From Candidatus Eiseniibacteriota bacterium (GTDB lineage: Bacteria > ARS69), in contig JBQTGV010000062.1 in NCBI GenBank assembly GCA_052390515.1, forward strand, positions 547 through 64,546: DNA of 64,000 nucleotides, read 5' to 3'. Each line of letters begins with the position of its first letter. The stretch's first letter is position 1. Below are positions 1,422 through 63,010 of this stretch, piece after piece. The notes below the pieces were generated by a model. The model was not told the DNA's origin, did no database searches, and was given only the letters and a program-made list of their open reading frames with translations. Both the position numbers and the translations under genes were made by a program.

Positions 1422-3395
1422 ATGTGCGGCATCGCCGGGATTCTCAACCTGGGGAGCTCCGAGCCCATCGATGAGCCCCTGCTGGCGCGGATGATCTCGA
1501 CCATCCGTCACCGGGGGCCGGACGAGTCGGGCATGTACGTGGACTCGACCGTCGGGCTGGCTCACGCGCGGCTCAGCATCATCGGCTTGACCGGCGGGAC
1601 GCAGCCGATCTGCAACGAGGACGGCACGCTCTGGATCGTCTACAACGGCGAAGCGTTCAACTACGTCGAGCTCCGCGAGGAGCTGCTCGGCCGCGGGCAC
1701 GTGTTCCGCACGACGACGGACACGGAGGTGCTGCTGCACCTCTACGAGGAGCACGGGGTCGAGTCCCTGAAGAGGATCAACGGCCAGTTCGCGCTGGCCA
1801 TCTGGGACTCGCGCAAGAGGGAGCTGTTCCTCGCGCGGGACCGCCTGGGGATTCGCCCGCTGTTCTACACCAGGAGCCGCGGCCGACTGCTCTTCGGGTC
1901 GGAGATCAAGGCGCTCTTCGCCGATCCGTCGGTGCCGCGGGCGATCGATCCGGTGGCCCTGGCGGAGACCTTCACGTTCTGGTCCACCCAGGCGCCCCGC
2001 ACCGCGTTCCGCGACGTGCACGCGCTTCGCCCCGGGCACACTCTCGTGGCGCGCGGCGCCGAGATCACCGAGACGCCGTACTGGCGGATCCCTCTGGTCA
2101 CGCCCGACGCGTACTACGGCGGCACGTTCGAGCAGGCTCGGGACGAGCTGCGCGCGCTGCTGAAGGACGCCGTTCGCATCCGCCTGCGCGCCGACGTGCC
2201 CGTGGGCGCCTATCTGAGCGGCGGCCTGGACTCCTCCCTGGTCACGGCCCTGATCGCCCGGCACTTCGACAACGATCTGCGGACCTTCTCCATGAGCTTC
2301 GAGGAGGCGCCGTTCGACGAGACGCCGTTCCAGCAGACCATGACCCGGCAGCTGGGGACGCGGCACAGCCAGGTGCACATCGGCAACGACCAGATCCGCG
2401 AGCTCCTGCCGGAGGTCGTCTGGCACTGCGAGACGCCGCTCACACGCACGGCGCCGGTGCCGCTCCTGCTGCTCTCGCGGCTGGTGCGGGATCACGGCTT
2501 CAAGGTCGTGCTGACGGGGGAGGGGGCCGACGAGGTCTTCGGAGGCTACAACATCTTCCGGGAGGCGAAGGTCCGGCGCTTCTGGGCGAGGCGCCCGAAC
2601 TCGACGCTTCGCCCGCTGCTCTTGGAGCGCCTCTACCCCTACGTCTTCCGAGACCCGGCACGGACCCGGTTCTTCCTCCAGAAGTTCTACGCCGTGAGAG
2701 ACGGCGATCTCGACGATCCGTTGTTCTCCCATCAGGTGCGGTGGCGAAACAGCGCACGCAACCGGACGTTCTTCTCCGACGAGGTGCGAGCCGCGCTCGC
2801 CGGCCACGATCCCGTGGAAGAACTTCGCTGCCGTCTCCCCGAGAGCTTCGGGTCGCGCGACGCGCTGTCCCGCGCGCAGGTGCTGGAGATGGAGCTCTTC
2901 CTGTCGAGCTACCTGCTGTCCTCGCAGGGCGACCGCGTGGCGATGGCGAGCTCGCTGGAGACGCGCATGCCGTTCCTCGACTACCGCGTGGTCGAGCTGG
3001 GATTCCGACTGCCGCCCCGCTGGAAGATCAACGCCCTGAAGGAGAAGCACATCCTCAAGGAGGCGGCGCGGGGCGTGCTGCCCGAGGAAGTGCGCGGGCG
3101 GGCGAAGAAGCCCTACCGAGCTCCCATCCGCGAGGCGCTCGCCGGCCGCGGCGGCGACGATTGGGTGCACGACCTGCTCTCCGCCCCGAGGCTGCGGCGC
3201 GCCGGCTACTTCGATGAGCGGAAGGTGGCCCACCTGCTGGCACGCTGCGAGGACGGAAGCGGCACGGGGGAGACGCAGGACATGGCGTTGGTCGGGATCC
3301 TCACGACGCAGCTCCTGCACCACCAGTTCGTGGAGAGCGCGGCGCTCTCGGACTCCGACGGGAGAACGCTGGACCGGGTGGTGCGCGTTGCCTGA
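1422..3395 (+). CDS. asnB: Asparagine synthase (glutamine-hydrolysing) family amidotransferase
   Basis: N-terminal MCGIAG (Ntn Cys), HRGPD, HARLSII, NGEAFN, RDRLGIRPLF, LSGGLDSS, LTGEGADEVFGGY, ETRMPFLD; GAGG SD before ATG 1422. Confidence 0.95.
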   Translation: MCGIAGILNLGSSEPIDEPLLARMISTIRHRGPDESGMYVDSTVGLAHARLSIIGLTGGTQPICNEDGTLWIVYNGEAFNYVELREELLGRGHVFRTTTDTEVLLHLYEEHGVESLKRINGQFALAIWDSRKRELFLARDRLGIRPLFYTRSRGRLLFGSEIKALFADPSVPRAIDPVALAETFTFWSTQAPRTAFRDVHALRPGHTLVARGAEITETPYWRIPLVTPDAYYGGTFEQARDELRALLKDAVRIRLRADVPVGAYLSGGLDSSLVTALIARHFDNDLRTFSMSFEEAPFDETPFQQTMTRQLGTRHSQVHIGNDQIRELLPEVVWHCETPLTRTAPVPLLLLSRLVRDHGFKVVLTGEGADEVFGGYNIFREAKVRRFWARRPNSTLRPLLLERLYPYVFRDPARTRFFLQKFYAVRDGDLDDPLFSHQVRWRNSARNRTFFSDEVRAALAGHDPVEELRCRLPESFGSRDALSRAQVLEMELFLSSYLLSSQGDRVAMASSLETRMPFLDYRVVELGFRLPPRWKINALKEKHILKEAARGVLPEEVRGRAKKPYRAPIREALAGRGGDDWVHDLLSAPRLRRAGYFDERKVAHLLARCEDGSGTGETQDMALVGILTTQLLHHQFVESAALSDSDGRTLDRVVRVA

Positions 3396-4233
3396 CCGCG
3401 CCGCCCTCCTCGAGGAGTGCACGTTCGCGGAAGGACCCGGTGTGGACGACTATCTCTACACGCGGGTGTACCTGCCCGCCGCCGAAACTCGCTCGACCGG
3501 GGTCGTCATCGCTCCTCCCGTGGGACACGAGCGGCTGCGCTGCTACCGGGAGCTCGTGGGGCTCGGGCGCGGTCTCGCCGAGGCCGGCTATCCCGCGATC
3601 CACCTCGATTACCGAGGCGAGGGAGAGAGCTCGGGCGATTTCGCGGACTCGGACCTGGGCTCGCGGGTGGCTGACGTGGGCGCCGCCGCGCGCGAGCTGC
3701 GCGGGCGGGCGCGGCTCGAGGAGCTCGTGCTCGTCGGCGTACGTCTCGGCGCGCTCGTCGCGCTGCTCGCGGCGCGATCCCTCGCCGTGACCCGCGTGGT
3801 CCTCTGCGAGCCGGTGTGCGATCCGAGGAGCCACGCGACGGACTTGCTTCGCGCCAACATCATCCTGCAACGGCAGTATCGCGGAGGGATCGCCGACACG
3901 TCTCCCGCGCTGCGCACGGCGCTCGCCTCGGGGCGCACGATCTCGGTCTACGGGTTCCACCTCGGCCGGAAGCTCCTCGGTGAGCTCGAAACGCTGGACA
4001 CGACCGCCGTCGTCGAAGGATTCGCGGGAGAGGCGCTCGTCGTGTACTTCGCCAGAGAAGAGCGCCCGCCGCGCCCGGATCTCGAGGCGTGGACGCGACG
4101 GTTCGTCGGAGCTTCTTCGCCGGTCGAGGCAGCGCGCGTGGTCACGGACTTCGGGTGGGCGGGCAAGGCCACGTGGAACTCCCGGCTCGAACCGTTGAAC
4201 GCGAGGGTGACGGAATGGCTCGCTCGGTCCTGA
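3388..4233 (+). CDS. Alpha/beta hydrolase-fold protein, resembling exosortase-system-associated hydrolase 2 (Arg at nucleophile elbow)
   Basis: LAEAGYPAIHLDYRGEGESSGDF and LVGVRLGALVA; TTG start overlapping the asnB stop (start inferred). Confidence 0.75.
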   Translation: MPDRAALLEECTFAEGPGVDDYLYTRVYLPAAETRSTGVVIAPPVGHERLRCYRELVGLGRGLAEAGYPAIHLDYRGEGESSGDFADSDLGSRVADVGAAARELRGRARLEELVLVGVRLGALVALLAARSLAVTRVVLCEPVCDPRSHATDLLRANIILQRQYRGGIADTSPALRTALASGRTISVYGFHLGRKLLGELETLDTTAVVEGFAGEALVVYFAREERPPRPDLEAWTRRFVGASSPVEAARVVTDFGWAGKATWNSRLEPLNARVTEWLARS

Positions 4234-5189
4234 GCACCGGGGGAGCGGTACGACGGACCGCCGTTGCGATCCTGAACCGAGACGGCAGGCGCATGTTCGG
4301 GATCCTGACGGCACCGGCGAGCGGCGCCGACGGTACGGAGGCCCTCGTGCTCTGCCACGCGGGAGTCACCAGCAAGGCCGGCACCGGCGAGTACATGAGG
4401 ATCCTGGCGGATCAGCTCGCCGCCCAGGGACGCTCGGTCCTGCGCTTCGATCAGTCCGGGGTGGGGGACAGCGAGGGCGAGATCGGCGACGGCCTCCCCA
4501 TCAACAGGTACTACCGGATGATCCAGACCGGCCTCTCCGTGGCCGATACGGAGGATGCCGTGGCTTGGCTCGCCGAGACGTGCCGGCCGGCGGGGATCTC
4601 GCTGCTCGGACATTGCGGCGGTTGTGTGACCGCGGCGCTCGTTGCCGCGCGCCGCCCCGGGACGTTCCGCGGGCTGATCTTCATCGCCCTGCCCGTTCTC
4701 TACTCTCCGCTGAACGGGGAGGCGGACGGCCGCGGTGATACGGACCGGAGGATCCCACACGCCCAGCTGAGGAAGCTGCTCCGGCCCGACGGATACCTGG
4801 GGGCTCTCCGGGGGCGGACCGACCTCCTGCTGATGACCCGGGCGGTGGCGAGCTACGGCGTCGAGCAGCTGCGGAAGTGGGCGCACCGGGGACCGGAGCG
4901 CCCTCCCTCGGGACTGCATCCGCTGTACAACCGCTTGCTCGGAGAGGCTTTCGAAGATCTGATGAGGAGGCGGACGCCGGTGTTGATCATCCTGCCCCAG
5001 TTCGACGTCGAGACCGAGACGTTCGAGGCGGAGTTCCGGGCGAAGGTGCTGGACGCGCATCCGGAATACCGCGACCTCTGCAGGGTGGAGTACCTGCCGG
5101 ACACCGACCACTCGGTGATGTTCGAATCTTCGCGGGAGCGCTTGAAGAGCGTCATCTCTGCGGGGCTCGACGCGATGGCGCACGCATGA
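4215..5189 (+). CDS. Alpha/beta hydrolase-fold protein, resembling exosortase-system-associated hydrolase 1 (Cys at nucleophile elbow)
   Basis: VLRFDQSGVGDSEGE, elbow LLGHCGGC, C-terminal PDTDHSV (His). Confidence 0.8.
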   Translation: MARSVLSTGGAVRRTAVAILNRDGRRMFGILTAPASGADGTEALVLCHAGVTSKAGTGEYMRILADQLAAQGRSVLRFDQSGVGDSEGEIGDGLPINRYYRMIQTGLSVADTEDAVAWLAETCRPAGISLLGHCGGCVTAALVAARRPGTFRGLIFIALPVLYSPLNGEADGRGDTDRRIPHAQLRKLLRPDGYLGALRGRTDLLLMTRAVASYGVEQLRKWAHRGPERPPSGLHPLYNRLLGEAFEDLMRRRTPVLIILPQFDVETETFEAEFRAKVLDAHPEYRDLCRVEYLPDTDHSVMFESSRERLKSVISAGLDAMAHA

Positions 5190-6226
5190 GCGCCCCGGGC
5201 CTCGGGCTGGACTCCCTGAAGCTCGACGCGGAGCGCGAGGTGGATCGGATCTGTCTTCGCCTGCGCGAGGCGCTGGCCGGACCGCTGCGTCGCCGCGGCC
5301 TCGTGATCGGACTGTCCGGGGGCATCGACAGCAGCGTCTGCGCGACGCTCGCGGCGCGGGCGCTCGGCGCCGCGCGCGTGTTCGGCCTGCTGATGCCCGA
5401 GCACCACTCCGACGACGACACGCTGCGGCTGAGCCGCGGTCTCGCCGGGAGCCTCGGGATTCGTTGGGCGCACGAGGACATCAGCGGCGTGCTGGACGCC
5501 GCCGGCTGTTACCGCCGCTACGACGACGCCGTGCGCAGCGTGGTGCCGGAGTATGGACCGGGGTGGAAGTCCAAGATCGTGGCATCGGATGCCACCGCGA
5601 GCCGGGGCTTTCGCCTCTTCTCCCTCGTGGCACAGGCGCCGGGGGGCGCGGTGGTCCGCACTCGGCTGCCGCTCGAGGCGTACCTGGGCATCGTCGCGGC
5701 GACGAGCTTCAAACAACGAACGCGCAAGATGATCGAGTACTACCACGCGGACCGCCTGCACTACGCGGTCGTGGGCACGCCCAATCGCCTGGAGTACGAC
5801 CAGGGCTTCTTCGTCAAGAACGGCGACGGTGCCGCGGACGTGAAGCCGATCGCGCACCTGTACAAGACCCAGGTCTACCAGCTGGCCGAGCACCTCGGCG
5901 TGGCGGCGGAGATCCGTTCGCGGCCTCCCTCCACCGACACCTATTCGCTGCCGCAGGGCCAGGACGAGTTCTACTTCTCGCTGCCCTTCGAGCAGATGGA
6001 CCTGTGCCTGTGGGGAAGGAACCATGGTGTTGCGCCGGAGGCGGTCGCGGCGGCCGTCGGGCTGACTCCCGATCAGGTGCGTCGCGTTTTCGAAGACATC
6101 GACACGAAGCGCGCGACGACCGCCTATCTGCACCTGTCCCCCCTGCTGATGGAAGACGTACCCGAGGTATCGCCGCGTTCCGGGAAGCGCGAGACGGCGG
6201 GCGCGGGGAGGTCGAAGCATGAGTGA
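5186..6226 (+). CDS. nadE: NH3-dependent NAD+ synthetase-like protein (cluster-associated paralog)
   Basis: PP-loop IGLSGGIDSS, KQRTRK, GTPNRLEYDQGFFVKNGDGAADVKPIAHLYKTQVYQLA, PPSTD, QDE; ATGA coupling to the previous gene. Confidence 0.85.
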   Translation: MSAPGLGLDSLKLDAEREVDRICLRLREALAGPLRRRGLVIGLSGGIDSSVCATLAARALGAARVFGLLMPEHHSDDDTLRLSRGLAGSLGIRWAHEDISGVLDAAGCYRRYDDAVRSVVPEYGPGWKSKIVASDATASRGFRLFSLVAQAPGGAVVRTRLPLEAYLGIVAATSFKQRTRKMIEYYHADRLHYAVVGTPNRLEYDQGFFVKNGDGAADVKPIAHLYKTQVYQLAEHLGVAAEIRSRPPSTDTYSLPQGQDEFYFSLPFEQMDLCLWGRNHGVAPEAVAAAVGLTPDQVRRVFEDIDTKRATTAYLHLSPLLMEDVPEVSPRSGKRETAGAGRSKHE

Positions 6227-6461
6227 CGTGAAGGACACGGTTCGCCGTTTCATCGTGGAGACGTTCCTGTTCGGGGAGAACGGACACCTGCAGGACGACA
6301 CGTCGTTCCTCGACGCCGGCATCATCGATTCGACCGGCGTCCTGGAGCTCGTGAGCTTCCTGGAAGCCACGTATGGAATCAGCGTGAGGGACGAGGAGCT
6401 GATCCCGGAGAACCTCGACTCGCTCGCCAACATCGAGGCCTACCTGGCGCGCAAGAAGTAG
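6219..6461 (+). CDS. Acyl/peptidyl carrier protein
   Basis: 80 aa, acidic; phosphopantetheine site in DAGIIDSTGVLELVSFLE; PENLDSL. Confidence 0.92.
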   Translation: MSDVKDTVRRFIVETFLFGENGHLQDDTSFLDAGIIDSTGVLELVSFLEATYGISVRDEELIPENLDSLANIEAYLARKK

Positions 6462-6476
6462 CCCGGGAGGGCGACG

Positions 6477-8030
6477 ATGCTGGTCCAGCAGTTCCTGGAG
6501 GACTCCGCGGCGCGCCTCCCGAACAAAGTCGCGCTGGTGTGCGGAAGCGAACGTCTCTCGTACAGCGAGATCGATCACCGCACCGGCCTCGTGGCGCGCC
6601 GGCTAGTCGCGCTCGGGGTGACGCGGCACGACCGCGTGGCCGTCTTCCTGGACAACTCGACCGAGCACGTCGTCGCGTTCTTCGGCGTACTGAAGGCCGG
6701 GGCGATCGCCATCCCGGTCAGCCCGACGATGAAGGCCCGGAAGCTCGGCTACATCCTGCGGGACTCCGGAGCCCGGGTGCTGATCGCCGGGGCGGAGAAG
6801 GCGCTCGTCGTCCGCGAGTCGGCGGAGCAAGCGACGGAGCTGCGGCACGTGGTGTGGTGCCGCCGGCCGGGTGCGCCGGTCAACCGGGAGGCGACGGACC
6901 TGCCCTCGGGTGTGAGCTCCGTCGAGTGGTCGTCGGTCCTGGCCTCCCCGGCGAACGCCGCTCTCCCGCGCTGCATCGACGTGGACCTGGCCACGATCAT
7001 CTATACCTCGGGGTCCACCGGCGAACCGAAGGGCGTGATGTGCGCTCACTGTAACGTGGTCGCCGCCGCGCGCAGCATCACGCAGTACCTCGAGAACGTG
7101 GAGGACGACGTCATCCTGGACACGCTGCCGCTCTCCTTCGACTACGGCCTCTATCAGGTGTTCATGGCCTTCCTCGTGGGCGCCACGGTGGTGCTGGAGC
7201 GCTCCTTCGCCTATCCGCATCAGGTGCTGGAGAGCCTCGTGCGTGAGCGCGTGACCGGCTTCCCGCTCGTGCCGACCATGGCCGCGATCCTGCTGCAGAT
7301 GGAAGAGCTGGCCGCGATGGACCTCGGCGCGCTGCGCTATGTCACCAACACGGCGGCCGCCCTGCCGGTCGCGTACGTGCGGAGGCTCCAGGCGCTTCTT
7401 CCCGGCGTGCGCATCTACTCCATGTACGGTCTGACGGAGTGCAAGCGCACCGCGTACCTGCCGCCTGAGCGGCTGAGCGAGCGCCCCGACTCCGTGGGGC
7501 TGCCCATTCCCAACGAGGAGGTGTTCATCCTCGACGACGCCGGGCGGGAAGTCGCTCCGGGGGAGATCGGCGAGCTGGTCGTGCGCGGCTCGAACGTCAT
7601 GCAGGGCTACTGGAACGCTCCCGAGGAGACGGCGCGCAAGTTCCGCCCGGGCCGCTGGCGCGGCGAGACGCTGCTGCACACCGGCGACCTCTTTCGACGG
7701 GACTCCGAGGGTTTCCTGTACTTTGTCGCGCGCAAGGACGACATGATCAAGACCAAGGGGGAGAGGGTCAGCCCGCGGGAGATCGAGGACGTGGTGTGCG
7801 AGATGGAGGGAGTGGCGGAGGCGGCGGTCGTGGGCGTGCCCGAGGATGTCGCGGGGCACGTGATCAAGGCGTGCGTCGTGCTGAGAGACGGCCGCACCAT
7901 CGGGGAGGAGGAGATCCGCAAGCACTGCAGCGCGCATCTGGAGGCCTTCGCCGTTCCCAAGTACGTGGAGATCCGCGCTTCGCTGCCGCGCACGCCGAAC
8001 GGCAAGATCGACAAGAAGGCGCTCGTCTGA
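6477..8030 (+). CDS. Stand-alone AMP-forming (ANL family) ligase / adenylation enzyme
   Basis: IIYTSGSTGEPKG, LSFDYG, SMYGLTE, HTGDL, RKDDMIK, PRTPNGKIDK. Confidence 0.93.
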   Translation: MLVQQFLEDSAARLPNKVALVCGSERLSYSEIDHRTGLVARRLVALGVTRHDRVAVFLDNSTEHVVAFFGVLKAGAIAIPVSPTMKARKLGYILRDSGARVLIAGAEKALVVRESAEQATELRHVVWCRRPGAPVNREATDLPSGVSSVEWSSVLASPANAALPRCIDVDLATIIYTSGSTGEPKGVMCAHCNVVAAARSITQYLENVEDDVILDTLPLSFDYGLYQVFMAFLVGATVVLERSFAYPHQVLESLVRERVTGFPLVPTMAAILLQMEELAAMDLGALRYVTNTAAALPVAYVRRLQALLPGVRIYSMYGLTECKRTAYLPPERLSERPDSVGLPIPNEEVFILDDAGREVAPGEIGELVVRGSNVMQGYWNAPEETARKFRPGRWRGETLLHTGDLFRRDSEGFLYFVARKDDMIKTKGERVSPREIEDVVCEMEGVAEAAVVGVPEDVAGHVIKACVVLRDGRTIGEEEIRKHCSAHLEAFAVPKYVEIRASLPRTPNGKIDKKALV

Positions 8031-24191: not shown

Positions 24192-24611
24192 ATGTCGGGA
24201 AGTCCGCCTGGCCTCTCTCCGGGAACCGGGAGCCCGATCGTGGATGTCGTCGAGCACGACCGTGCCGTGAGGAGCGGCCTTTGCGAGCTGCTCCGCAGCA
24301 ACGGATTCTCGGTACGCCCGTTCGAGAACGGAAGGGAGTTCCTGGCGGCGCCCGCATGTCCGGACGCCGGCTGCGTCCTCCTGGATCTCGACCTCCCGGA
24401 CGTGCCCGCCCTCGAGCTGGTGAGTCGGCTCCGCGGAGGACGTCCCGTGGTCGTGCTCGCCGCCCATGCGAACGTAGCGACGGCGGTCGAGGTGATGCAC
24501 GCCGGCGCTTACTGGCTCCTGGAGAAACCGTTCGCGGCGGAGGTGCTCCTCGAGCGCGTGCGACGCGCGTCCCACTGCGGGCGTACGGGAAGTTCCCGAA
24601 TGGGCGACTGA
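24192..24611 (+). CDS. Single-domain response regulator (REC only)
   Basis: VDVVEHD, VLLDLDLPD, LEKPF; no output domain. Confidence 0.8.
   Translation: MSGSPPGLSPGTGSPIVDVVEHDRAVRSGLCELLRSNGFSVRPFENGREFLAAPACPDAGCVLLDLDLPDVPALELVSRLRGGRPVVVLAAHANVATAVEVMHAGAYWLLEKPFAAEVLLERVRRASHCGRTGSSRMGD
24584..24599. promoter_or_regulatory. Putative regulator operator, copy 2 (TACGGGAAGTTCCCGA)
   Basis: Repeat of the 24082 box; about 140 bp upstream of the secreted SGNH-like gene. Confidence 0.45.
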
Positions 24612-24735
24612 GGGGCTATTTCGTAGATCCGGAGCAGGGCTCCGTAGAGAGCCATCCATCCACTTGCCCCGGGAGGCAGTCGTGTTCCACATCTCGCAAG
24701 TTCTCGCGCGGAGACCCGCCGTCGGTCGAACGAAC

Positions 24736-26010
24736 GTGTTTCGCAGATGCTTCGCCGCGATCCTCGTCGCGTTGAGCCCGTCCCTGGCTGTGGCGGACGG
24801 CGCGCTGTGCGCCAGGACGTCCGTGGGTTTCGTGCCGCTGAGCGAATCCCGACCGTTCCTTCATCAGGGCGTGCCTGGCGGCCTCTACCCGAATGGGTCC
24901 GCGGTGCGTCCGGCGGCGCATGACGCGGCGGGTGCGTTTCTCGCGTCCCGCGTGGTCCCGCGCGACGCATCGGGCCTCCCCGATCCCGTGAACGGACGGA
25001 TCGGAGTCCTGACCATCGGTCTGTCCAACACCGCGCGGGAGACGAACGCACTCATTCTCCTGCAGGCGTCCGATCCGCAGCGCAATCCCGCGGTCATCAT
25101 CGTGAACGGCGCCGAGGCCGGAGCCGTGGCCGAAGTGATCCGGGATCCGGCCGACCCCTACTGGGGACGCGTCGCAGCCAAGGTTGCGGCCGCGGGGCTC
25201 ACGCCGGCCCAAGTCCAGGTCGTGTGGTACAAGACCGCGACGAAGAATCCCACGGCACGGTTCCCGCAGCACGCCCAGACGCTGCAGGCGAACAACACCG
25301 CGGCCGTGCAGATCCTGCCGGTCGCGTTCCCCAACGTCGTGCAGTGCTTCGTCTCCAGCCGCATCTACGCCGGCTACGCCAGCACGACGCTGAACCCCGA
25401 GCCGTGGGCCTACGAGAGCGGTTTCGCGTACAAGTGGATGATCGAGAGCCAGATCGCCGGAGCCCCCGAGCTGAACTACGACCCGCGCAGGGGAGCGGTG
25501 CGCGCGCCCTGGCTCGCGTGGGGTCCGTACCTGTGGGCGGACGGAACGAAAGCGCGCAGCGACGGCTTGACCTGGACGTGCGCCGACTTCATGAACGACG
25601 GCACGCATCCGTCGCCGGCCGGCATGGACAAGGTGGCGCACCTGCTGCACGAGTTCTTCCGCAACGACCCGGTCACGTCATCGTGGTACCTGTCCGCGCA
25701 GCCCACGGGCGTCGAAAGCCTGCCCGCACGGCTCTCCTGGACCGTGCAGCCGGCCTACCCGAACCCGTTCGTGTTCCGCATGGCCATTCCGCTCCAGGTC
25801 ACGTCCGCGGAGCGGATCCGCGCCGCCGTCTACTCGCTCGACGGCCGGCGCGTCCGGGGGCTGTACGACGCGCGGCTGGAGGCCGGCGCCCACGATCTCG
25901 CGTGGGACGGCACCGACGACTCCGGCCGGCGCGTCGTTGCGGGCACTTACCTGGTCCGCGTCGAGGGCGAGTCGGGCGTTCGCACCGTCAAGGCGACGCT
26001 GCTCCGCTGA
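24736..26010 (+). CDS. Secreted SGNH-hydrolase-like protein with C-terminal FlgD-Ig domain
   Basis: Signal peptide (…SPSLAVA); IGLSN and DGTHPS motifs; C-terminal YPNPF...GRRVR...WDGTDDSGRRVVAGTYLVR. Confidence 0.75.
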   Translation: MFRRCFAAILVALSPSLAVADGALCARTSVGFVPLSESRPFLHQGVPGGLYPNGSAVRPAAHDAAGAFLASRVVPRDASGLPDPVNGRIGVLTIGLSNTARETNALILLQASDPQRNPAVIIVNGAEAGAVAEVIRDPADPYWGRVAAKVAAAGLTPAQVQVVWYKTATKNPTARFPQHAQTLQANNTAAVQILPVAFPNVVQCFVSSRIYAGYASTTLNPEPWAYESGFAYKWMIESQIAGAPELNYDPRRGAVRAPWLAWGPYLWADGTKARSDGLTWTCADFMNDGTHPSPAGMDKVAHLLHEFFRNDPVTSSWYLSAQPTGVESLPARLSWTVQPAYPNPFVFRMAIPLQVTSAERIRAAVYSLDGRRVRGLYDARLEAGAHDLAWDGTDDSGRRVVAGTYLVRVEGESGVRTVKATLLR

Positions 26011-26781: not shown

Positions 26782-26939
26782 CGGGTGAGGGACGCCCTGT
26801 CAAAGCCTCCAGTCGGCTCATTTCCAGCGACTTACGTCCCCGCGGCCGGTCGCCGCGGCCTGTCCGCCACCCCGGGCAGGTGCTTTCGAAACTCCCGTGC
26901 GTTACCTTCTTGCCGCCCTCCCCCTGGGAGACCACCGGA

Positions 26940-28358
26940 GTGAACCGACCGCAGCAGCCGTCCGGCGACCATGTTCCCGGCAGGATCCTCGTCGTCGACG
27001 ACGAGGAGACCATCCGCCAGGGGCTCTCCCGCGTCCTGGTCGGCGAAGGCTACGCGGTCGACACCGCCGCGGACGCCGAGAGTGCGCTTCGCCTGGCCCT
27101 CGCCTCGCCCCCGGACCTGGTCATCTCCGACCTGCACCTACCCGGGAAGAACGGCCTGGAGCTGATCGCCGAGCTGCAGGAGCGCGGGGACGAGGCCACC
27201 TTCGTCGTGCTGACCGGCCACGGCTCCATCGACAGCGCCATCGAAGCGACGCGCCGCGGCGTCTACGACTACCTGGTCAAGCCGATCGATCGGCCGCGGC
27301 TGACCACGGTCGTTCGCAAGGGGCTGGAACGGGCCGCCCTTCGCCGCGAGGTGCGGCACCTCCGCCGTGAGATGATCAGCGCCGGGCGCTTCCAGGAGCT
27401 GGTGGGCTGCTCGCCGCAGATGATGGAGATCTACCGGTTGCTGGAACAGATCGCCCCGTCCTCCGCCTCCGTGCTGATCACCGGCGAGAGCGGCACGGGC
27501 AAGGAGCTGGTCGCGCGCACGATCCACCGTCTCAGCCCGCGGGCCGCAGCGCGCCTGGTGGCCATCAACTGCGCGGCGATCCCGGAGAACCTCCTGGAGA
27601 GCGAGATCTTCGGCCACGAGAAGGGGGCGTTCACCGGGGCGACCGCCACGCGTCCGGGGTGCTTCGAGCTGGCGCACCAGGGGTCGCTGCTGCTCGACGA
27701 GATCGGGGAGATGCCGCCCGATCTTCAAACGAAGCTCCTGCGGGTGCTGGAGGACGGCATGGTGCGGCGAGTCGGCGGGGCGAGCGAGGTACGCGTCGAC
27801 GTGCGAGTCCTCGCTGCGACGAACATCCCGGTGGAGAAGCTCACCCGGGAGCGCGGCTTTCGCGAGGACCTGTATTACCGTCTCAACGTCTTCGCCATCC
27901 GCATCCCACCGCTGCGCGAACGGCGCGAGGACGTGTCGCTGCTGGCCGAGCACTTCCTCTCCGTGTTCGCCGGGGAGAACACGAAACAGGTCGCGGGGTT
28001 CTCCGACGAAGCCATGGAGCGGCTCCTTCGACACGACTGGCCGGGGAACGCCCGCGAGTTGCGCAACGCCGTGCAGCGGGCGGTGATCCTCTGCTCCGAC
28101 GGCGAGATCCTCCCGCGCCATCTCCCCGACACGGTGCGCGGGCGGGTTCGTGCGGTCCCGGGTGCGGCCGAGGACGGCGCCGTGAGCATCCCGGTCGGCA
28201 CGTCGATCGAGGAGGCGGAGAAGGCCCTCATCCTGGAGACCCTCGCCGCGAACGGCGGCAACAAGACCCGCACCGCCGAGGTCCTGGGCGTCAGCGCGAA
28301 GACGCTGTACTCCAAGCTGCGCCGCTACGAGGGTGGCGAGGTCGGCGCGGCGGAATGA
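26940..28358 (+). CDS. Sigma-54-dependent NtrC/ZraR-family response regulator
   Basis: REC (VVDDE, ISDL), GESGTGKE, GAFTGA, LLDEIGE, WPGNAREL, Fis HTH (GGNKTRTAEVLG). Confidence 0.96.
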   Translation: MNRPQQPSGDHVPGRILVVDDEETIRQGLSRVLVGEGYAVDTAADAESALRLALASPPDLVISDLHLPGKNGLELIAELQERGDEATFVVLTGHGSIDSAIEATRRGVYDYLVKPIDRPRLTTVVRKGLERAALRREVRHLRREMISAGRFQELVGCSPQMMEIYRLLEQIAPSSASVLITGESGTGKELVARTIHRLSPRAAARLVAINCAAIPENLLESEIFGHEKGAFTGATATRPGCFELAHQGSLLLDEIGEMPPDLQTKLLRVLEDGMVRRVGGASEVRVDVRVLAATNIPVEKLTRERGFREDLYYRLNVFAIRIPPLRERREDVSLLAEHFLSVFAGENTKQVAGFSDEAMERLLRHDWPGNARELRNAVQRAVILCSDGEILPRHLPDTVRGRVRAVPGAAEDGAVSIPVGTSIEEAEKALILETLAANGGNKTRTAEVLGVSAKTLYSKLRRYEGGEVGAAE

Positions 28359-30163
28359 GCGCTCGCGGAGGCCGGCGCCAGATCTTCGCGCTCCTGCTCC
28401 TTGCGCCGCTGGTGGTCGCGTCGTCCACGTTGCTCGAGCTGGCCAAGGTGGCGAGGCTTGCGACGGAGCGGGCTGCGGTGGAGTGCGACCTGATCACCGA
28501 CTCCGTCCGCCGCCAGCTCGATCTGCTCGCGCGCGAGCATCCCGGCGTGGAGCTGGACACGCTCGCGCGGGACCCGCGCCTGCAGCTCGTGCTCGGCGAC
28601 GCCGTCGTGCACGCAGCGTCCATCCTGCACCTCGCAGTGTGCGACCCCGATGGGATCGTGGTGGCGCACAGCATGTCCTCGCGGGTCGGGGAGCCCGTGG
28701 CGCGCGGCCTGCCTTTGCCCGTCGCCGAGAATCTGCCGGAGTCATTCCGCGCGCTCTGGGAGCTGCGCCGGAGCGAACAGGTGTACGAGCGGTTCACGCC
28801 GCTGACGACGGACGGCAACCCCTTCGCCTCCATCCAGGTGCTGGTCAGCGGCGCGTTCCTGCGCGACGGGATCCGCCAGGCGTTCTGGACCGGCGTGGCC
28901 GTGTCGCTGGTGGTGCTCACCGTGGCGATCGGCGCCGGCGCGCTGGTGACCCGCATCGCGCTCGGCCGGCTGCGCGTGCTGGAAGAGGGAGTCGCCGCGC
29001 TGCGCGAGGGCCGCTTCGAAGCGGCGATTCCGGAGACGGGCGCCGACGAGTTCGGCCGGATCGCGCGCGAGCTGAAGCTGCTCGGGGAGCAGTTCCAGCG
29101 GGAGCGCCGCGAGAGCGGGGCCGGCCGCACGCTGTGGCGCGCCGCCGACCTGCTGGGCGACGGGATCGTCGCCGTCGGTGCGACCGACGAGGTGATCCTG
29201 GTGAATGCGCCGGCGTGCGGCGTGCTCGGCCTGGACGGCAGCGGAGCGGTCGGGAAGCGGCTCACCGATCTCCTGCCCGCCGGCCATCCGGTGCAGGTGC
29301 TCTGCAGGCAGCTCCGTGCGGGGAGCGAGCGCAGCCTCTCCATCCCGCTCGGCGAGGACGGCGGGAAGGACGGGTCCCTGGCCGTCGGCCACCGCATCGA
29401 GGACGCGGACGGGTCGGACCCGGGGATCCTGATCGAGCTGAAGCCCGCGCGGGACCAGGCCGTGCTGCACAGCCTGGTCGACCAGTCGCGGGTGCTGACC
29501 CGGCTCGGCGAGATGGCCACCGGCGTAGCTCACGAGCTTCGGGATCCGCTGCAGACCCTCTCGCTCGATCTGGACGCGGTCGCCGGGGCAGCCGCCCGGG
29601 AGCCCGAGCTCGAGCCGTACGTGCGCAGCGCACGGCAGAAGGTGGCGCGGCTGGACCGGGCGATCCGCGGGTTCCTGACCATCGCGAGGATGCGGCCACC
29701 GGCCTTCGACGCGACGGACGTAAACGCGCTGTTGACGCAGCTGCGAGAGGAGATGGAGCCTGACGCAAACCTCGCCGGGCTCCAGCTCGACCTGGACCTC
29801 GGCCCGGGGGAAACCCTCATCGATGGGGACGCGCTGGCTCTCCGGCAGGCGGTCCAGAACGTGGTTCGCAACTCCATCTTGGCGTTGCCCTCGCGGCACG
29901 GCAGAATCGTATTGCGGTCCCGTCGAGACCGGGACAGGATCTCCGTCTCGGTGTCCGACAGCGGCCCCGGAATCCCCCCTGAGGCGCTGGACAAGGTGTT
30001 CGATCTCTTCTACACGACGCGGGAGGAGGGTACCGGTGTCGGCCTCGCGCTCGTACGCCAGGCGGTCGAGATGCACGGAGGCGACGTGGTCATCCGTTCC
30101 GAGCCCGGATCGGGGACGGTGGTGACGCTGAACCTTCCGCACGGATCGGCGAACGGGCGATGA
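28355..30163 (+). CDS. Sensor histidine kinase (TM-HAMP-PAS-HisKA-HATPase)
   Basis: HAMP (DEFGRIA), PAS-like LVNAPACGVLG, GVAHELRDPL, DSGPG, FYTT, GTGVGL. Confidence 0.92.
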   Translation: MSARGGRRQIFALLLLAPLVVASSTLLELAKVARLATERAAVECDLITDSVRRQLDLLAREHPGVELDTLARDPRLQLVLGDAVVHAASILHLAVCDPDGIVVAHSMSSRVGEPVARGLPLPVAENLPESFRALWELRRSEQVYERFTPLTTDGNPFASIQVLVSGAFLRDGIRQAFWTGVAVSLVVLTVAIGAGALVTRIALGRLRVLEEGVAALREGRFEAAIPETGADEFGRIARELKLLGEQFQRERRESGAGRTLWRAADLLGDGIVAVGATDEVILVNAPACGVLGLDGSGAVGKRLTDLLPAGHPVQVLCRQLRAGSERSLSIPLGEDGGKDGSLAVGHRIEDADGSDPGILIELKPARDQAVLHSLVDQSRVLTRLGEMATGVAHELRDPLQTLSLDLDAVAGAAAREPELEPYVRSARQKVARLDRAIRGFLTIARMRPPAFDATDVNALLTQLREEMEPDANLAGLQLDLDLGPGETLIDGDALALRQAVQNVVRNSILALPSRHGRIVLRSRRDRDRISVSVSDSGPGIPPEALDKVFDLFYTTREEGTGVGLALVRQAVEMHGGDVVIRSEPGSGTVVTLNLPHGSANGR

Positions 30164-30729
30164 CCTTCGCGGGCTCCCGTACGATTCCGCCGCTCGCCGC
30201 GCTCCTGTTCTGCGGTTGTTCCCTCATGCCCGGCGGATCGGCCGAACCGGACCCCGGCGAGCCGCCGCTCACGGAGACGGTGCCCGCGGACACGACGTCG
30301 ATCGCGGCGGCCGACTCGACAGTCGATGCGGCCCAGCCGGTCCTGACCGATGCGGAGCCGGTCCCCGTCGAGGAGCCCGCGCCCGCGAGTGACCCGGAGC
30401 CGGTCCCCGCGGTGCCCGCGCCCGATCCACCCGCCGAGCGCGTCGTCGCGGAAGCGGGGCCCGCCGAGCCGCTCGCCCCGGTTCAGGTGGAGCTGTCCGC
30501 CGAGGAGCGGCTCTCGCTGGCCACCGAGGCGCGGAAGGACCTCGAACTGGCCGAGCAGGCGCTGCGGAGCGAGGATCCCGATCCCCCGGGAGCGGAGCGG
30601 CGCGAGAAGCTCGACACCATCCGGAACCTCATCGACTCGGCGAAAGCTGCGTACAGCGAGGATCTGCGCGCCGCCGCGACGCTCGCGCACAAGGCGCGCT
30701 TGCTCGCCGAGGAGCTGTCGGGTACCTGA
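30160..30729 (+). CDS. Hypothetical lipoprotein (Pro/Glu-rich linker + helical C-terminus), coupled to the kinase
   Basis: Lipobox FCGC; ATGA overlap; C-terminal helices …LAHKARLLAEELSGT. Confidence 0.75.
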   Translation: MTFAGSRTIPPLAALLFCGCSLMPGGSAEPDPGEPPLTETVPADTTSIAAADSTVDAAQPVLTDAEPVPVEEPAPASDPEPVPAVPAPDPPAERVVAEAGPAEPLAPVQVELSAEERLSLATEARKDLELAEQALRSEDPDPPGAERREKLDTIRNLIDSAKAAYSEDLRAAATLAHKARLLAEELSGT

Positions 30730-30734
30730 CGCGA

Positions 30735-30860
30735 TCACCAGATCAGGACGGCCGTCACCACCGCAGCCACCACCGCCAGCACGACGAGCCCGAGCAAGGC
30801 GAAGCCGATCCACCAGCCTTCGGGCAAGCGAGATTCGGGAACCTGCGCCTTGTGTGCCAC
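30735..30860 (-). CDS. 41-aa single-TM small protein
   Basis: GGAGG SD 5 nt before GTG; MAHKAQVPESRLPEGWWIGFALLGLVVLAVVAAVVTAVLIW*; below the ORF-track cutoff. Confidence 0.6.
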   Translation of the reverse strand: MAHKAQVPESRLPEGWWIGFALLGLVVLAVVAAVVTAVLIW

Positions 30861-31285
30861 GAAGCCCTCCCGCGCCTGGAAGCGGATCGCGGGAGCGGGG
30901 AACGATGCGAGTTCCGGTCGCTCTTCTCCGTTCCCCCTCCCGGATCCGGTGGGCGCCCCGTTGCGTCGTACGCAAGCGCCCCGGGCGCGCAGGTGACTGC
31001 CCCCCGGCGGTCACCCGAAGAAGAAGCGCGCCCTTCCTGCGGACCGGTACCGAGACCGTTCGGGATCCGGTCCTGTCGGACGCCTACGCACGGACCGTGC
31101 CCGCACCGGCACGCCCCTGGACGGCCTCTGCCGGGGTCCTGCGGCTCCCGAGAGGTGTACTTTCGCCCGCATCCGGTAACTCCTACCGACCCGTCCGGCA
31201 CCGCGGAGAGGCTTCGGCCCGAGCGGGATGCGGCTGCGGCACGTCAGCGCCCCGCCACGATCGATCCGTTTCCTCGAGCCGTCGG

Positions 31286-31300
31286 TGGCACGACTCGTGC
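31286..31300 (+). promoter_or_regulatory. Putative sigma-54 (-24/-12) promoter
   Basis: TGGCAC-GACTC-GTGC; palindrome CGGTA-ACTCC-TACCG at 31174-31188 sits at a typical enhancer distance. Confidence 0.6.
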
Positions 31301-31348
31301 GGGCGCCACTGGCGGCGGGATCGGGAGTAGCGGAGAGGAGGCTCGTCG

Positions 31349-31606
31349 TTGTTGCACCTGCACCTGCTCATGCTCGTCATCGCCGTCGTGGCGCTTGCCG
31401 GACCGCCGCGCACCGGCACCGTGCGCACGTCGGCCATGGGGAGCGGGCCCCAGCCGCAGGCATCGCCCGCGGGGATGCCGGCCGCGCTGACCCCGGATGG
31501 AAGGGAGAACTCCACGGCGACCGGCGGGTCCTGGTCGAACGTCGCGGCGGTCAGCCTCGCCTCGCTCGGCGGGGCGCTCGTGCTGCGACGCCGCCGCCGG
31601 CGCTGA
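31349..31606 (+). CDS. 85-aa exported small protein with a C-terminal TM + poly-Arg sorting-signal-like tail
   Basis: AGGAGG SD; hydrophobic N-terminus; low-complexity linker; STATGGSWSN-VAAVSLASLGGALVL-RRRRRR. Confidence 0.6.
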   Translation: MLHLHLLMLVIAVVALAGPPRTGTVRTSAMGSGPQPQASPAGMPAALTPDGRENSTATGGSWSNVAAVSLASLGGALVLRRRRRR

Positions 31607-31693
31607 TCGGCAGGAGACTTCAGGCCACGGGAAGTACCGGCGGCGGCGGGGGGAGGTGCTGGGGCGCGCGCTCCTCGTCGTCGTCGCGGCGCT

Positions 31694-32734
31694 TCACTTG
31701 CGCTCGAACGCGATCCCCGGCTCCACCACGGGCGCGCGCCGCGGGCGGAAATCGACCCAGCGATCGAACAGGTAGGGCATCAGCGCCCTCTCCGTGACGA
31801 GCCACGCCACCGCGACGTAGCCGGCGCCCGCCACCAGGTCGACGATGTAGTGCTGGTTCAAGTACACCGCCGCGAACCAAGTCAGCGCGGGATACGCCAC
31901 GACCCAGCGCGCCCGCCGGCCGAAGCGGAGCACGGCGAAGACGGCGATGGTGAGCGGGTAGGCGCCGTGTAGCGAGGGCATGGCCGCGAAGAGATTCGGA
32001 CTGAAGTGGTCCCACAGCGTCTCGAAGAAGCGGACTCGGAACATCTGGTCCAGAGCGACCAGGCCGCCTGCCGCGCCCGAGACCAAGCCGACCTCCGAGG
32101 GCTGCCGCATCCCGTGAAGCTCCACGTACCAGGGCGGGGCTGCCGGATACAGCATGAACGTGGTCAGGCCGGTCAGGTTCAGCACGGTCAGCGTGTACAC
32201 GAAGCGATAGAATGTTCGCCGATCGTCGGCCGTGTGCCAGAGGATCCACATGAAGATGAGCGGCGCGCCGAAGTGGAGCGTGTACATGTTGGCGCTCAGC
32301 AGGTCCAGGGCGCCCTTGTACCACTCGCCGTCGTGTGCGGCCCGCCACCCGGCGAACCACAGTGGCGGTACCTCGCCCGGCGTGACCCAGCCGAAGAGCG
32401 CGGACTCCCAGCGGTACGGCTCGGCCACGTGGACGTACCCGCCCTGGATGGAGTCGGCTACCCCGCGCATCATGTCGTACAGGATCCAGAACAGGATGAA
32501 CGGAAACCAATCGACGAGGAACCGACGGCCGCTCTCCTTGCCGAGGAATCCGAACGCCAGCACCACGAGCGCCAAGAACAGGTGGTCCGGACGCACGTGC
32601 AGCAGCTGGTTGATCGCCATCGTGTACACGAGCACGAAAAGCAGGATGCCGATCTTCCAGCGCCGCTGGCTGCGGGGCGAGGGGCGGCGCTCGGCCGGTG
32701 CGGATTCCGAACCCGGGATCATGCGGCGATCCAC
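31694..32734 (-). CDS. PAP2 / Aur1 (inositol-phosphorylceramide synthase-like) membrane phosphotransferase
   Basis: YPAAPPWY, FAAMPSLH, VYLNQHYIVD motifs; multiple TMs. Confidence 0.85.
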   Translation of the reverse strand: MDRRMIPGSESAPAERRPSPRSQRRWKIGILLFVLVYTMAINQLLHVRPDHLFLALVVLAFGFLGKESGRRFLVDWFPFILFWILYDMMRGVADSIQGGYVHVAEPYRWESALFGWVTPGEVPPLWFAGWRAAHDGEWYKGALDLLSANMYTLHFGAPLIFMWILWHTADDRRTFYRFVYTLTVLNLTGLTTFMLYPAAPPWYVELHGMRQPSEVGLVSGAAGGLVALDQMFRVRFFETLWDHFSPNLFAAMPSLHGAYPLTIAVFAVLRFGRRARWVVAYPALTWFAAVYLNQHYIVDLVAGAGYVAVAWLVTERALMPYLFDRWVDFRPRRAPVVEPGIAFERK

Positions 32735-35651: not shown

Positions 35652-35791
35652 GGTCGAGGACTCCTCGGTGAGGGGAACCTCGCGAGCATAACGGAGCCGG
35701 TCGGTTCGTTGAAAGGGTATCTCGGCGATTCACAGCGGCGCGTGGTACTGATTCCCGGCGGTCTTCGAGATTCGTCACGAAGGAGGCGATC

Positions 35792-61890: not shown

Positions 61891-62975
61891 AGGCGGTTCG
61901 CCTCGTCGCCGTCGTGCTCGCGCTGGGCGCAGCGCTCGCCGCTGGCCTGCGCTACGGCTGGCTGCTGCTGCTCGAGTCTCCGGCCATCGCGCCGGGGTCC
62001 GCTGCTCCCGTCGAGCTCTCCATCGAATCGGGGGAACGTCTCGCCAGCGTGGCGGCCCGCATGGAGGAGGCCGGGCTCATCGTCTCGGCGAACCGCTTCG
62101 CACTACTCGCGCGGCTCACCCGCGCCGACCGCACGATGCACGCCGGCACGTACCAGTTCGCGCCCGGCACCGGTCCACGCGACATCCTCCGTGACATGGT
62201 CGAGGGCAACGTGCGGCTGCAGCGCGTCACGCTTCCGGAAGGCTGGCGACTCGCCCAGATCGCCGAGGAGGTGGAGCGGGAGCTCGGCGTGTCGGCCGAC
62301 TCGATCCGCGCGGCGGCCGCCGACCCGGCACTCCTCGAGACGATGGGCTGCCCGGCCGAGACGCTCGAGGGGTACCTGTTCCCGGAGACCTACTACTTCC
62401 CGGACGGCGTCTCCGCGCGGCAGATCGTCACCGCGATGGCGCATCGCTTCGACGACGTCTGGTCGGCGCTTCCACCGAATCCGCACGACGGGCTCACCCG
62501 CCACGACGTCGTGACGCTGGCCTCGATCGTGGAGGCGGAGACCCGGATCCAGTCGGAGAAGCCGCGGATCGCCGCGGTGTACCTGAACCGCCTCGAGCGC
62601 GGCTGGAAGCTGCAGGCCGATCCCACGGTGCGCTTCGGCATCGAGCAGTTCACCGGCCGCCTCTACTACCGGCACCTGGATATCGACACGCCCTACAACA
62701 CGTATCTGCACGAGGGGCTGCCGCCCTCGCCGATCGGGGCGCCCGGGCGGTCCTCGCTGCTCGCCGTACTGCAGCCCCTCGAACCCTGCGACGACCTGTA
62801 CTTCGTTGCGTCGGGGAACGGCGGGCACGTCTTCTCCCGCACCGGAGAGGAGCACATCCAGGCGAAGCTCGCCGCGCGGGCGCAGGCCGAGGCGGCAGGG
62901 AAGACCTTGGCGGAGGCCGCTTCCCTGGCCGAGGCCAGTCCCGTGGCCGAGACGGCCGCTCCGGTCACCCGTTGA
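61887..62975 (+). CDS. mltG: Endolytic transglycosylase MltG
   Basis: TLPEG, LEGYLFPETY, LASIVEAE, NRL...LQADPT, YNTY..GLPPSPI. Confidence 0.95.
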   Translation: MKAVRLVAVVLALGAALAAGLRYGWLLLLESPAIAPGSAAPVELSIESGERLASVAARMEEAGLIVSANRFALLARLTRADRTMHAGTYQFAPGTGPRDILRDMVEGNVRLQRVTLPEGWRLAQIAEEVERELGVSADSIRAAAADPALLETMGCPAETLEGYLFPETYYFPDGVSARQIVTAMAHRFDDVWSALPPNPHDGLTRHDVVTLASIVEAETRIQSEKPRIAAVYLNRLERGWKLQADPTVRFGIEQFTGRLYYRHLDIDTPYNTYLHEGLPPSPIGAPGRSSLLAVLQPLEPCDDLYFVASGNGGHVFSRTGEEHIQAKLAARAQAEAAGKTLAEAASLAEASPVAETAAPVTR

Positions 62976-63010
62976 CCCCTTCGCCCGGCGTTCCTATCCT
63001 CCATGCTCCG

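Follow-up and report, generated by a model that had tools for sequence, protein, structure and literature searches.

A four-gene NadE/AsnB/ACP/ligase cassette joined to a predicted Cys/Arg hydrolase pair in a Candidatus Eiseniibacteriota genome

Gene organization of the cassette

A 64-kb stretch of contig C62 (GenBank JBQTGV010000062.1; hereafter the window) from a Candidatus Eiseniibacteriota bacterium was found to contain a cassette of six genes encoding an AsnB-type glutamine amidotransferase, a pair of alpha/beta-fold hydrolase-like proteins (hydr2-like and hydr1-like), a paralog of NadE, a stand-alone acyl carrier protein (ACP) and an ANL-type adenylating ligase (Table 1). The genome is 95% complete in 223 contigs, and the phylum is represented in the collection by 12 species genomes, namely this one and 11 relatives. 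Inspection of the junctions from 5' to 3' gave overlaps of 8, 19, 4 (ATGA) and 8 nucleotides followed by a gap of 15 nucleotides. An earlier interpretation made from the DNA letters (the sequence-only reading) had described six tightly coupled, mostly overlapping genes, and all six were present with their positions and junctions confirmed. A ribosome site, GAGGTGG, lies upstream of asnB, and the starts within the cassette are preceded by purine-rich ribosome sites. The TTG start of the hydr2-like gene is supported because the codon for Phe13, a residue invariant in the family, precedes GTG 3442, where translation could next begin, and because the public gene call for the contig gives an identical 281-aa product (P0007).

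Table 1. Genes of the cassette, numbered by their coordinates in the 64-kb window on contig C62.
Gene or product	Position	Strand	Length and remarks
asnB, AsnB-type glutamine amidotransferase	1422-3395	+	657 aa; starts MCGIAG
hydr2-like alpha/beta-fold pseudo-hydrolase	3388(TTG)-4233	+	281 aa
hydr1-like alpha/beta hydrolase	4215-5189	+	324 aa
PRK00876-type NadE paralog	5186-6226	+	346 aa
Stand-alone ACP	6219-6461	+	80 aa; phosphopantetheine Ser in GIIDSTG
ANL adenylating ligase, VinN/TIGR03098 kind	6477-8030	+	517 aa

The cassette NadE and AsnB

The NadE encoded in the cassette scored 499 bits against the PRK00876 model NF002048 (cut-off 313) and 161 bits against NF010587, the NAD+ synthase equivalog (cut-off 255). 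A second NadE, encoded on contig C71, scored 306 bits against NF010587 and only 120 bits against PRK00876. The PRK00876 type was over its cut-off in 1 of the 12 phylum genomes, that of the window, compared to 11 of 12 for the C71 type, the single miss being a genome that is 82% complete. A quick maximum-likelihood tree was built from 38 rows: the window copy, 23 of the 80 loci described below, two plasmid copies, the C71 copy, 10 relatives and Escherichia coli NadE. The window copy fell in a PRK00876-type clade (26 rows, approximate likelihood ratio test [aLRT] 96) and the C71 copy grouped with the phylum relatives (11 rows, aLRT 96). The branches between the two clades carry more than 4 changes per site, and branching within the PRK00876 clade is at odds with taxonomy. 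The cassette protein keeps the PP-loop and the K-x-GDG-x-D block (a two-block match to NadE chains in the PDB); compared to solved NadE structures it has an insertion of approximately 70 residues between these blocks, and it has no glutaminase domain.

Judged by profile scores, distribution and tree, the window NadE is an extra copy and not the housekeeping NAD synthetase. The housekeeping identity was ruled out by the equivalog on C71, the 1/12 versus 11/12 distribution and the tree. The sequence-only reading had expected this and had pointed to a second nadE and to a NadE tree as the places to look; a second copy was found on C71 and the window copy stood outside the housekeeping clade. The name "NAD(+) synthase" carried by the cassette type would thus be a systematic mis-annotation.

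The longest open reading frame (ORF) of the housekeeping NadE on C71 (L019 3056-4945, - strand) encodes 630 aa, of which the NAD synthase domain takes up no more than residues 355-610. No Pfam match was found in its N-terminal 350 residues at E<=1e-5; this region may be a divergent glutaminase domain or the result of a start called too early. Another NadE-like gene, divergent at 36-37% identity, stands immediately upstream of the cassette NadE in two loci of Desulfobacterales (L034 906-1850 and L046 6657-7586).

The AsnB protein scored 529 bits against TIGR01536 (cut-off 267), and matches Pfam GATase_7 and Asn_synthase; its Cys2 nucleophile is intact and its PP-loop reads SGGLDS. The protein scored 464 bits against TIGR03108, the XrtA amidotransferase model, compared to a cut-off of 817, and is therefore not a member of that family. 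Five AsnB-type genes over the cut-off were found in the genome, including the cassette copy.

The four-gene core is a widespread orphan cassette

Genome contigs were scanned for relatives of the NadE paralog. At least 555 related stretches were confirmed, spanning Thermodesulfobacteriota, Verrucomicrobiota, Acidobacteriota, Planctomycetota, Actinomycetota, Myxococcota, Fibrobacterota and other phyla, and the best 80 loci (57-70% identity) were kept. Among the 44 of these with at least 5 kb on each side, an ACP gene was present in 41, an ANL ligase gene in 41 and an AsnB gene in 34; all three were present in 33 and none in 2. Since these companions recur in the 44 loci, the grouping of the cassette genes is not due to chance. 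The order of the genes differs between loci.

The Sinorhizobium cassette on pSymB was reportedly first described by Ramos-Vega et al. in 2009 (as cited in PMC9542644). The pSymB operon has the same four families as the window, with a ligase that is 52% identical and carries the D-Y-T-K-R code described below and a NadE that is 60% identical (plasmid search). In contrast to the window, its order is asnB-ACP-ligase-nadE, it has no hydrolase pair and it lies on a megaplasmid; the window cassette has two hydrolase genes between asnB and nadE and lies on the chromosome of a small uncultured phylum. The asnB-ACP-ligase-nadE arrangement was found in S. medicae and in Nitratireductor with the genes adjacent (co-directional in S. 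medicae), and there the cassette stands alone, outside glycan loci. According to one report (PMC7232532), the ligase gene smb20650 and the ACP gene smb20651 are transcribed together, expression of SMb20650 in E. coli acylates holo-SMb20651 in vivo, and SMb20650 has no oleate-CoA ligase activity and cannot replace FadD. The Sinorhizobium precedent named in the sequence-only reading is therefore real, as judged from the S. medicae locus and that report (PMC7232532).

The window locus has the features of this cassette type, with a NadE over the NF002048 cut-off and an ACP, an ANL ligase and a Gln-dependent AsnB-type gene adjacent to it. The ACP scored 25 bits against Pfam PP-binding compared to a cut-off of 20.8. 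An assignment of this protein to the planctomycete OlsH/OlsI ornithine-lipid route was rejected, with 54.7 bits against NF052616 (cut-off 130) and no GH3-like gene in the locus. The NadE/AsnB/ACP/ligase cassette occurs in hundreds of species of many phyla, and no assignment of a product to it since 2009 was found in the literature searched. These findings show that the four-gene core is an already known, widespread orphan cassette, and that what is new here is its joining to the hydr2/hydr1 pair.

The cassette of a close relative in Desulfatitalea (L033) has no hydrolase pair and adds genes for a PrmC-like methyltransferase, a GNAT/FemAB-like protein and a polysaccharide deacetylase. The PrmC-like family methylates carboxamide nitrogen. 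Cassettes other than that of the window, such as this one of Desulfatitalea, thus carry different candidate transferases.

The ligase and its predicted substrate

The ligase scored 518.3 bits against TIGR03098 (cut-off 592.35) and 297 bits against TIGR01733, and it is closer to the adenylation domains of nonribosomal peptide synthetases (NRPS) than to fatty-acid ligases. Its best single-domain relative in the PDB is VinN (3WVN), at 281 bits and an E value of 1.2e-82 over the full length (core alignment 206 bits). VinN places 3-methyl-Asp or L-Asp, as a beta-amino acid, on the stand-alone ACP VinL; its specificity depends on D230, F231, S299, K330 and R331, and its beta13-beta14 loop is one residue shorter (PMC11253843). 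The free alpha-carboxylate is afterwards removed on the carrier (PMC11253843, PMC10662134). The five VinN residues correspond to D, Y, T, K and R in the window ligase (within FDYGLY, TNTAAALP and TECKR), with a gapless alignment in the shortened loop.

This match to the VinN code suggests that the ligase probably loads an Asp-type amino acid, most likely L-Asp via its side-chain carboxyl, onto the ACP. The glutamate mutase E subunit was not found in the 95% complete genome, which leaves no visible source of 3-methyl-Asp and makes L-Asp the simplest candidate. This gives a definite and testable candidate substrate for the ligase, L-Asp as a beta-amino acid, and the prediction extends to the Sinorhizobium enzyme.

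With VinN-VinL-VinO (and the FlvN type), which load starters of macrolactam polyketides, the window system shares an adenylating enzyme of this kind with its five recognition residues conserved and, by prediction, the use of Asp or 3-methyl-Asp as a beta-amino acid on a stand-alone ACP and a change to the carboxylate at the carrier stage. It differs in that no decarboxylase (VinO), VinM-type protecting ligase, VinK acyltransferase or polyketide synthase (PKS) is encoded nearby, and in that the free carboxylate would be amidated instead of removed.

The code was read in 64 cassette ligases. D-Y-T-K-R was found in 20, including the S. medicae homologue of SMb20650; Gly or Ser was found in the Asp position in seven, which lack the Lys save for one exception; and the remaining 37 form a separate type, in which the loop is longer and the Asp is missing. 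All 64 keep the Arg. In six true TIGR03098 ligases, the Asp and Arg are also kept and the Tyr is present in five (Ala in L223), and Phe replaces the Lys.

The hydr2-like and hydr1-like proteins

The hydr2-like protein scored 87.3 bits against TIGR03101 (cut-off 202.75) and the hydr1-like protein 44.5 bits against TIGR03100 (cut-off 168.45). The nucleophile elbow of the hydr1-like protein reads G-H-C-G-G, and its triad, Cys134-Asp264-His299, was invariant in 7 of 7 relatives. A full HMMER search gave 1049 representatives at E<=1e-30; in the best 150 of these, the Cys was present in 148, the His in 148 and the Asp in 130 (Glu in 9). In the hydr2-like protein, the elbow reads G-V-R-L-G, with Arg in place of Ser; this Arg119 was invariant in 20 of 20 aligned relatives, and no His was conserved. 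Long proteins (at least 520 aa) accounted for 46 of the same best 150 of 1049, and 43 of the 46 were hydr2-hydr1 fusions with the domains in the order of the genes found here. Of 45 N-terminal domains from fused forms, 43 carried the Arg. Fusions of relatives of the pair with other enzymes were also found, in P0042 (31% identical) with a GT4 glycosyltransferase and in P0096 with a polysaccharide deacetylase.

The AlphaFold 2 model of the hydr1-like protein had a predicted local distance difference test (pLDDT) score of 89.4, and a fold search with it returned only generic esterases, lipases and trans-acting thioesterases (DcsB, GrgF). When PDB sequences were searched with the profiles of the two hydrolases, no solved family member came up, only generic Ser esterases and trans-acting thioesterases. 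A model of the hydr2/hydr1 complex, which supports binding without demonstrating it, scored 0.89, compared to 0.00 for the best of three controls. Of 157 solved complexes, 116 reached the score mark, as did 2 of 215 mismatched pairs; these counts apply only approximately, custom alignments having been used. The runs share at least 81% of contacts and the partner pLDDT was at least 79. In the model, the interface is formed by the loops around Asp264 and His299 and by the conserved N-terminus of the Arg subunit.

From the catalytic residues, the hydr1-like protein is proposed to be a thioester transacylase or thioesterase, and the modelling predicts that it forms with the hydr2-like product one Cys/Arg heterodimer, which would handle carrier-protein thioesters. 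The window pair has the features of a hydr1/hydr2 superfamily that was defined within the present analysis, has not been published and is broader than the XrtA equivalogs: Cys-Asp-His in hydr1, an Arg elbow in hydr2, and hydr2 lying directly before hydr1 or fused to it.

Metagenome loci found by a search with the hydr1-like profile were also compared (80 loci, chosen through one peptide pattern). A match was seen in 79 of the 80. In the 66 loci where it could be assessed, hydr2 lay directly upstream in 56 and elsewhere in the locus in six. Thirty pairs had 3 kb or more of upstream sequence, and 22 of them came immediately after an ORF that bears an ANL domain and exceeds 800 aa. A NadE-type gene was present in the locus in four cases, two of which (L144 and L164) read asnB-ACP-nadE-hydr2-hydr1. 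In Comamonas (L097), a gene for an XrtA ATPase (TIGR03015, over the cut-off) is followed by asnB-ligase-ACP-nadE-hydr2-hydr1. Among the 80 NadE-type loci, a match to the hydrolase pair was found in only three, and in none of the 11 other phylum genomes was the pair found at E<=1e-15. The rarity of the pair among NadE loci and its absence from the 11 relatives indicate that it is an optional add-on to the cassette.

A second pair, with elbows G-G-R-L-G and G-I-C-S-G, is encoded in the same genome on contig C138. In this hybrid assembly-line locus (L113 1562-16130), it comes directly after an NRPS (C-A-PCP), a PKS (KS-AT-KR-ACP-sulfotransferase), which we take to be CurM-like, and another NRPS (C-A-PCP), and directly before an Sfp-type phosphopantetheinyl transferase (PPTase), the only PPTase found in the genome. 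No thioesterase domain was detected by Pfam in the NRPS and PKS proteins of this contig, and the pair is thus left as the sole candidate releaser of a line without a Pfam release domain. A Cys/Arg heterodimer of this kind would be a defined candidate for an offloading enzyme that also closes many NRPS lines.

Exosortase-linked systems and a possible acceptor

One exosortase was found in the genome, on contig C209; it scored 178 bits against 8TM_EpsH (over the cut-off) and 168 bits against XrtA (cut-off 208). The same contig encodes a FemAB-family XrtA/PEP-CTERM-associated protein (TIGR03019, 332 bits, cut-off 260), an XrtA-system polysaccharide deacetylase (TIGR03006, 332.5 bits, cut-off 276), a priming glycosyl-phosphotransferase and sigma-54 regulators. 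Two PEP-CTERM matches were found on contigs C59 and C106. The sequence-only reading had directed attention to exosortase and PEP-CTERM genes, and those present in the genome were not linked to the window. No match to MBOAT (PF03062) was found in the 95% complete genome. A pyridoxal-phosphate (PLP) decarboxylase of the TIGR03099 type was found neither in the window nor, at E<=1e-20, in the same 95% complete genome.

In a sample of 101 genomes, 19 had a match above the TIGR03098 cut-off; one of these, the unpublished genome G040, contributed to this count only. Four loci from a sample of Burkholderiales genomes were compared with the window. In these canonical loci, the hydr1 elbow was G-L-C-D-A in 4 of 4 and the hydr2 elbow G-x-R-L-G in 3 of 4. 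A verified canonical XrtA locus scored 373 bits for hydr1_PEP, 291 for hydr2_PEP, 810 for the ligase and 642 for TIGR03099, and it bears out the statement in the sequence-only reading that sets of a ligase and a hydrolase pair occur near exosortase loci. This locus also encodes a DltB-like MBOAT and an AsnB-like protein. In the canonical set of L222 (11585-13108, Burkholderiales genome G025), the DltB-like MBOAT scored 178.6 bits against TIGR04091, below the cut-off; it is followed by an unassigned 431-aa gene and then by an AsnB-like gene that matches the models from approximately profile position 100 only, a layout resembling Dlt.

The window locus was not accepted as a member of the XrtA/PEP-CTERM equivalogs, TIGR03098, TIGR03100 and TIGR03101 all being under their cut-offs; it has no TIGR03099 gene beside the ligase and does not have the position of an exosortase A polysaccharide locus. 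It does resemble the XrtA/PEP-CTERM set (TIGR03098, TIGR03099, TIGR03100 and TIGR03101 with an ACP and a DltB-like MBOAT) in having a ligase that is 40-44% identical with D, Y and R kept, a pair in the same order with a Cys elbow and an Arg elbow, and a small stand-alone carrier gene beside the ligase. In contrast to that set, the window would have NadE and AsnB amidation in place of decarboxylation, and it lacks an MBOAT and is not beside an exosortase. The likeness to the Dlt system (DltA ligase, DltC carrier, DltB MBOAT and DltD) is one of logic only, in that an ANL ligase charges a small carrier with an amino acid for an envelope polymer. MBOAT and DltD were not found here, and the amino acid and the tailoring and offloading enzymes differ.

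The locus ties together the pSymB cassette, the exosortase-linked ligase/decarboxylase/hydrolase set and VinN-type starter loading, which have so far been treated apart. The three look like variants of a single scheme for handling an amino dicarboxylate on a carrier, its free carboxylate being either decarboxylated (XrtA, macrolactam) or amidated (the cassette).

Proposed mechanism and alternative explanations

The locus was characterized through the anatomy of its genes and their families, through paralogy, through the conservation of its catalytic residues and through genomic associations. This evidence is consistent with a self-contained carrier-protein tailoring line with Asp-type loading, amidation and offloading by a Cys/Arg heterodimer, a reading whose chances we put at about even. 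The ligase would adenylate an Asp-type amino acid, most likely L-Asp, at the side-chain carboxyl and form its thioester with the holo-ACP, which could be primed in trans by the Sfp-type PPTase of C138; the amino group and the alpha-carboxylate would stay free. ATP-dependent amidation would then convert the free carboxylate to a carboxamide. The NadE paralog, as the enzyme most tightly tied to the ACP and ligase, may carry out this step, and the Gln-dependent AsnB-type enzyme may perform either the same amidation or a second one. The hydr2-like/hydr1-like heterodimer would take the product off the ACP, with Cys134 of the Cys-Asp-His triad accepting the acyl group as a thioester and the Arg-bearing pseudo-subunit packing against the Asp264 and His299 loops. 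From there the acyl group would go either to an acceptor with an amine or a hydroxyl group or to water. Adenylation, ACP loading, amidation and offloading by the hydrolases had been outlined in the sequence-only reading and largely stand; its transfer onto a surface glycan or lipid is not supported, as nothing in the genome shows such an acceptor, the exosortase locus is on another contig and MBOAT was not found. A precursor of an exosortase-type polysaccharide made from the C209 genes is a candidate acceptor; the main alternative is hydrolysis that frees an amidated amino acid, an outcome just as possible as transfer to a glycan or lipid.

Several observations weigh against this tailoring line. 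Side-chain-loaded Asp has one free carboxylate, yet two amidating enzymes are encoded, so that one enzyme is left without an assigned substrate in the scheme. The ligase, the hydrolases and AsnB are all under the curated cut-offs of the exosortase families. Since the VinN code is missing in 44 of the 64 cassette ligases, with only the Arg constant, the loaded acid probably differs among cassette types. The neighbours of the locus among the scanned window ORFs name no acceptor, and the genome yielded no MBOAT. The hydr1-like Cys enzyme could simply hydrolyse thioesters or serve in editing. The 80 metagenome hydr1 loci were selected through a single peptide pattern and so do not form a random sample, and the complex score is a model confidence and not a measurement. 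Biochemical data on the families involved are limited to the reported in-vivo acylation of SMb20651.

The same carrier chemistry could instead yield a free small molecule, for example an amidated Asp derivative serving as a compatible solute or signal, with the pair acting as a releasing thioesterase and no polymer being decorated. Glycan, lipid or membrane acyltransferase genes were not seen among the scanned ORFs of the window, MBOAT was not found in the genome, and the Sinorhizobium and Nitratireductor cassettes lie outside glycan loci. A TrkA_C-bearing transporter and a kdp K+ system are neighbours, although the transporter is convergent and not co-transcribed with the cassette. AsnB-type enzymes amidate the osmolyte dipeptide NAGGN, and the window AsnB scored 387 bits against TIGR03104, below the cut-off; the pair behind the NRPS genes also resembles a chain-releasing enzyme. 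However, relatives of the cassette stand in polysaccharide loci (L033 with its deacetylase and GNAT/FemAB-like gene, L097 with its XrtA ATPase), and some relatives of the pair occur as fusions with a GT4 glycosyltransferase or a polysaccharide deacetylase. Cys nucleophiles are, moreover, commoner in transacylation than in simple hydrolysis. As a whole, this reading appears rather unlikely. It is less probable still that the pair is an editing unit resembling a type II thioesterase that clears mis-loaded carriers, the real transferase being encoded elsewhere. The FemAB-family protein of C209 could fill that role, since it and the deacetylase of that contig are both over their cut-offs; the closest cassette, that of Desulfatitalea, lacks the pair and has a GNAT/FemAB-like gene behind it, and the pair matched in only 3 of the 80 NadE-type loci. 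Editing thioesterases are, to our knowledge, single Ser enzymes, whereas the invariant Cys and the obligate, often fused Arg partner point to a more specific job, and in the C138 line, with no built-in release domain by Pfam, the pair is the only candidate releaser.

Ordinary clustered metabolism, in which NadE makes NAD, AsnB makes asparagine and the ligase and ACP serve lipid metabolism, is highly improbable. The NCBIfam names would fit it (TIGR01536 and NF002048, both over their cut-offs), as would the conserved active-site blocks of NadE. But the second NadE passes NF010587 and groups with 10 phylum relatives, the cassette NadE is in 1 of 12 phylum genomes, and five AsnB-type genes are present in the genome. 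The four genes travel together across many phyla with a NadE tree that does not follow taxonomy. The Sinorhizobium ligase reportedly fails to replace FadD (PMC7232532). This explanation is thus largely refuted by paralogy and distribution.

Beyond the tailoring line itself, the hydr2/hydr1 proteins can be put forward, tentatively and with the balance against it, as an undescribed class of obligate two-part or fused transacylases that unload aminoacyl or peptidyl groups from carriers. Such a class would stand in for the thioesterase domain of many NRPS lines, act as the transferase in a Dlt-like aminoacylation of exosortase polysaccharides, and here deliver a beta-linked aspartate alpha-amide (isoasparaginyl) group. 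If true, this would also provide the orphan NadE/AsnB cassette, which would make that group, with a first predicted substrate.

Surroundings of the cassette in the window

The 5' neighbour of the cassette is an unrelated sulfatase gene on the - strand. On the 3' side lie a convergent CitMHS/TrkA_C transporter gene and then kdpA, kdpB and kdpD, also unrelated to the cassette, and the remaining scanned ORFs of the window are housekeeping or unrelated genes. The ORFs scanned, which cover the window except for 26.8-31.7 kb, included no gene for glycan synthesis, lipid synthesis, a membrane acyltransferase or a PPTase, in line with the sequence-only reading, which had seen no PPTase or glycan genes adjacent to the cassette. 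The window gave no Rfam match and no promoter-like sites, and terminator-like sites were at chance level (3 found compared to 2.2 expected).

The GC content of the locus is 0.66-0.71, compared to 0.70 for the genome. Although this fits the genome, the occurrence of the cassette NadE type and of the hydrolase pair in the window genome alone, together with the NadE tree being off taxonomy, points to a probable gain of the cassette by horizontal transfer.

A segment of approximately 4.8 kb (26831-31694) had zero confident genes by a codon-position GC filter, with long ORFs on both strands. Another PP-loop enzyme, a LarE-type ATP-dependent sacrificial sulfur transferase (TIGR00268, 323 bits, cut-off 150), is encoded at 62972-63856 on the + strand, 55 kb from the cassette and unrelated to it. 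Two predicted secreted proteins (24496-26010 and 32787-35729), one with a proprotein-convertase P domain, end in FlgD_ig-like domains, which may be a C-terminal sorting tag of the lineage.

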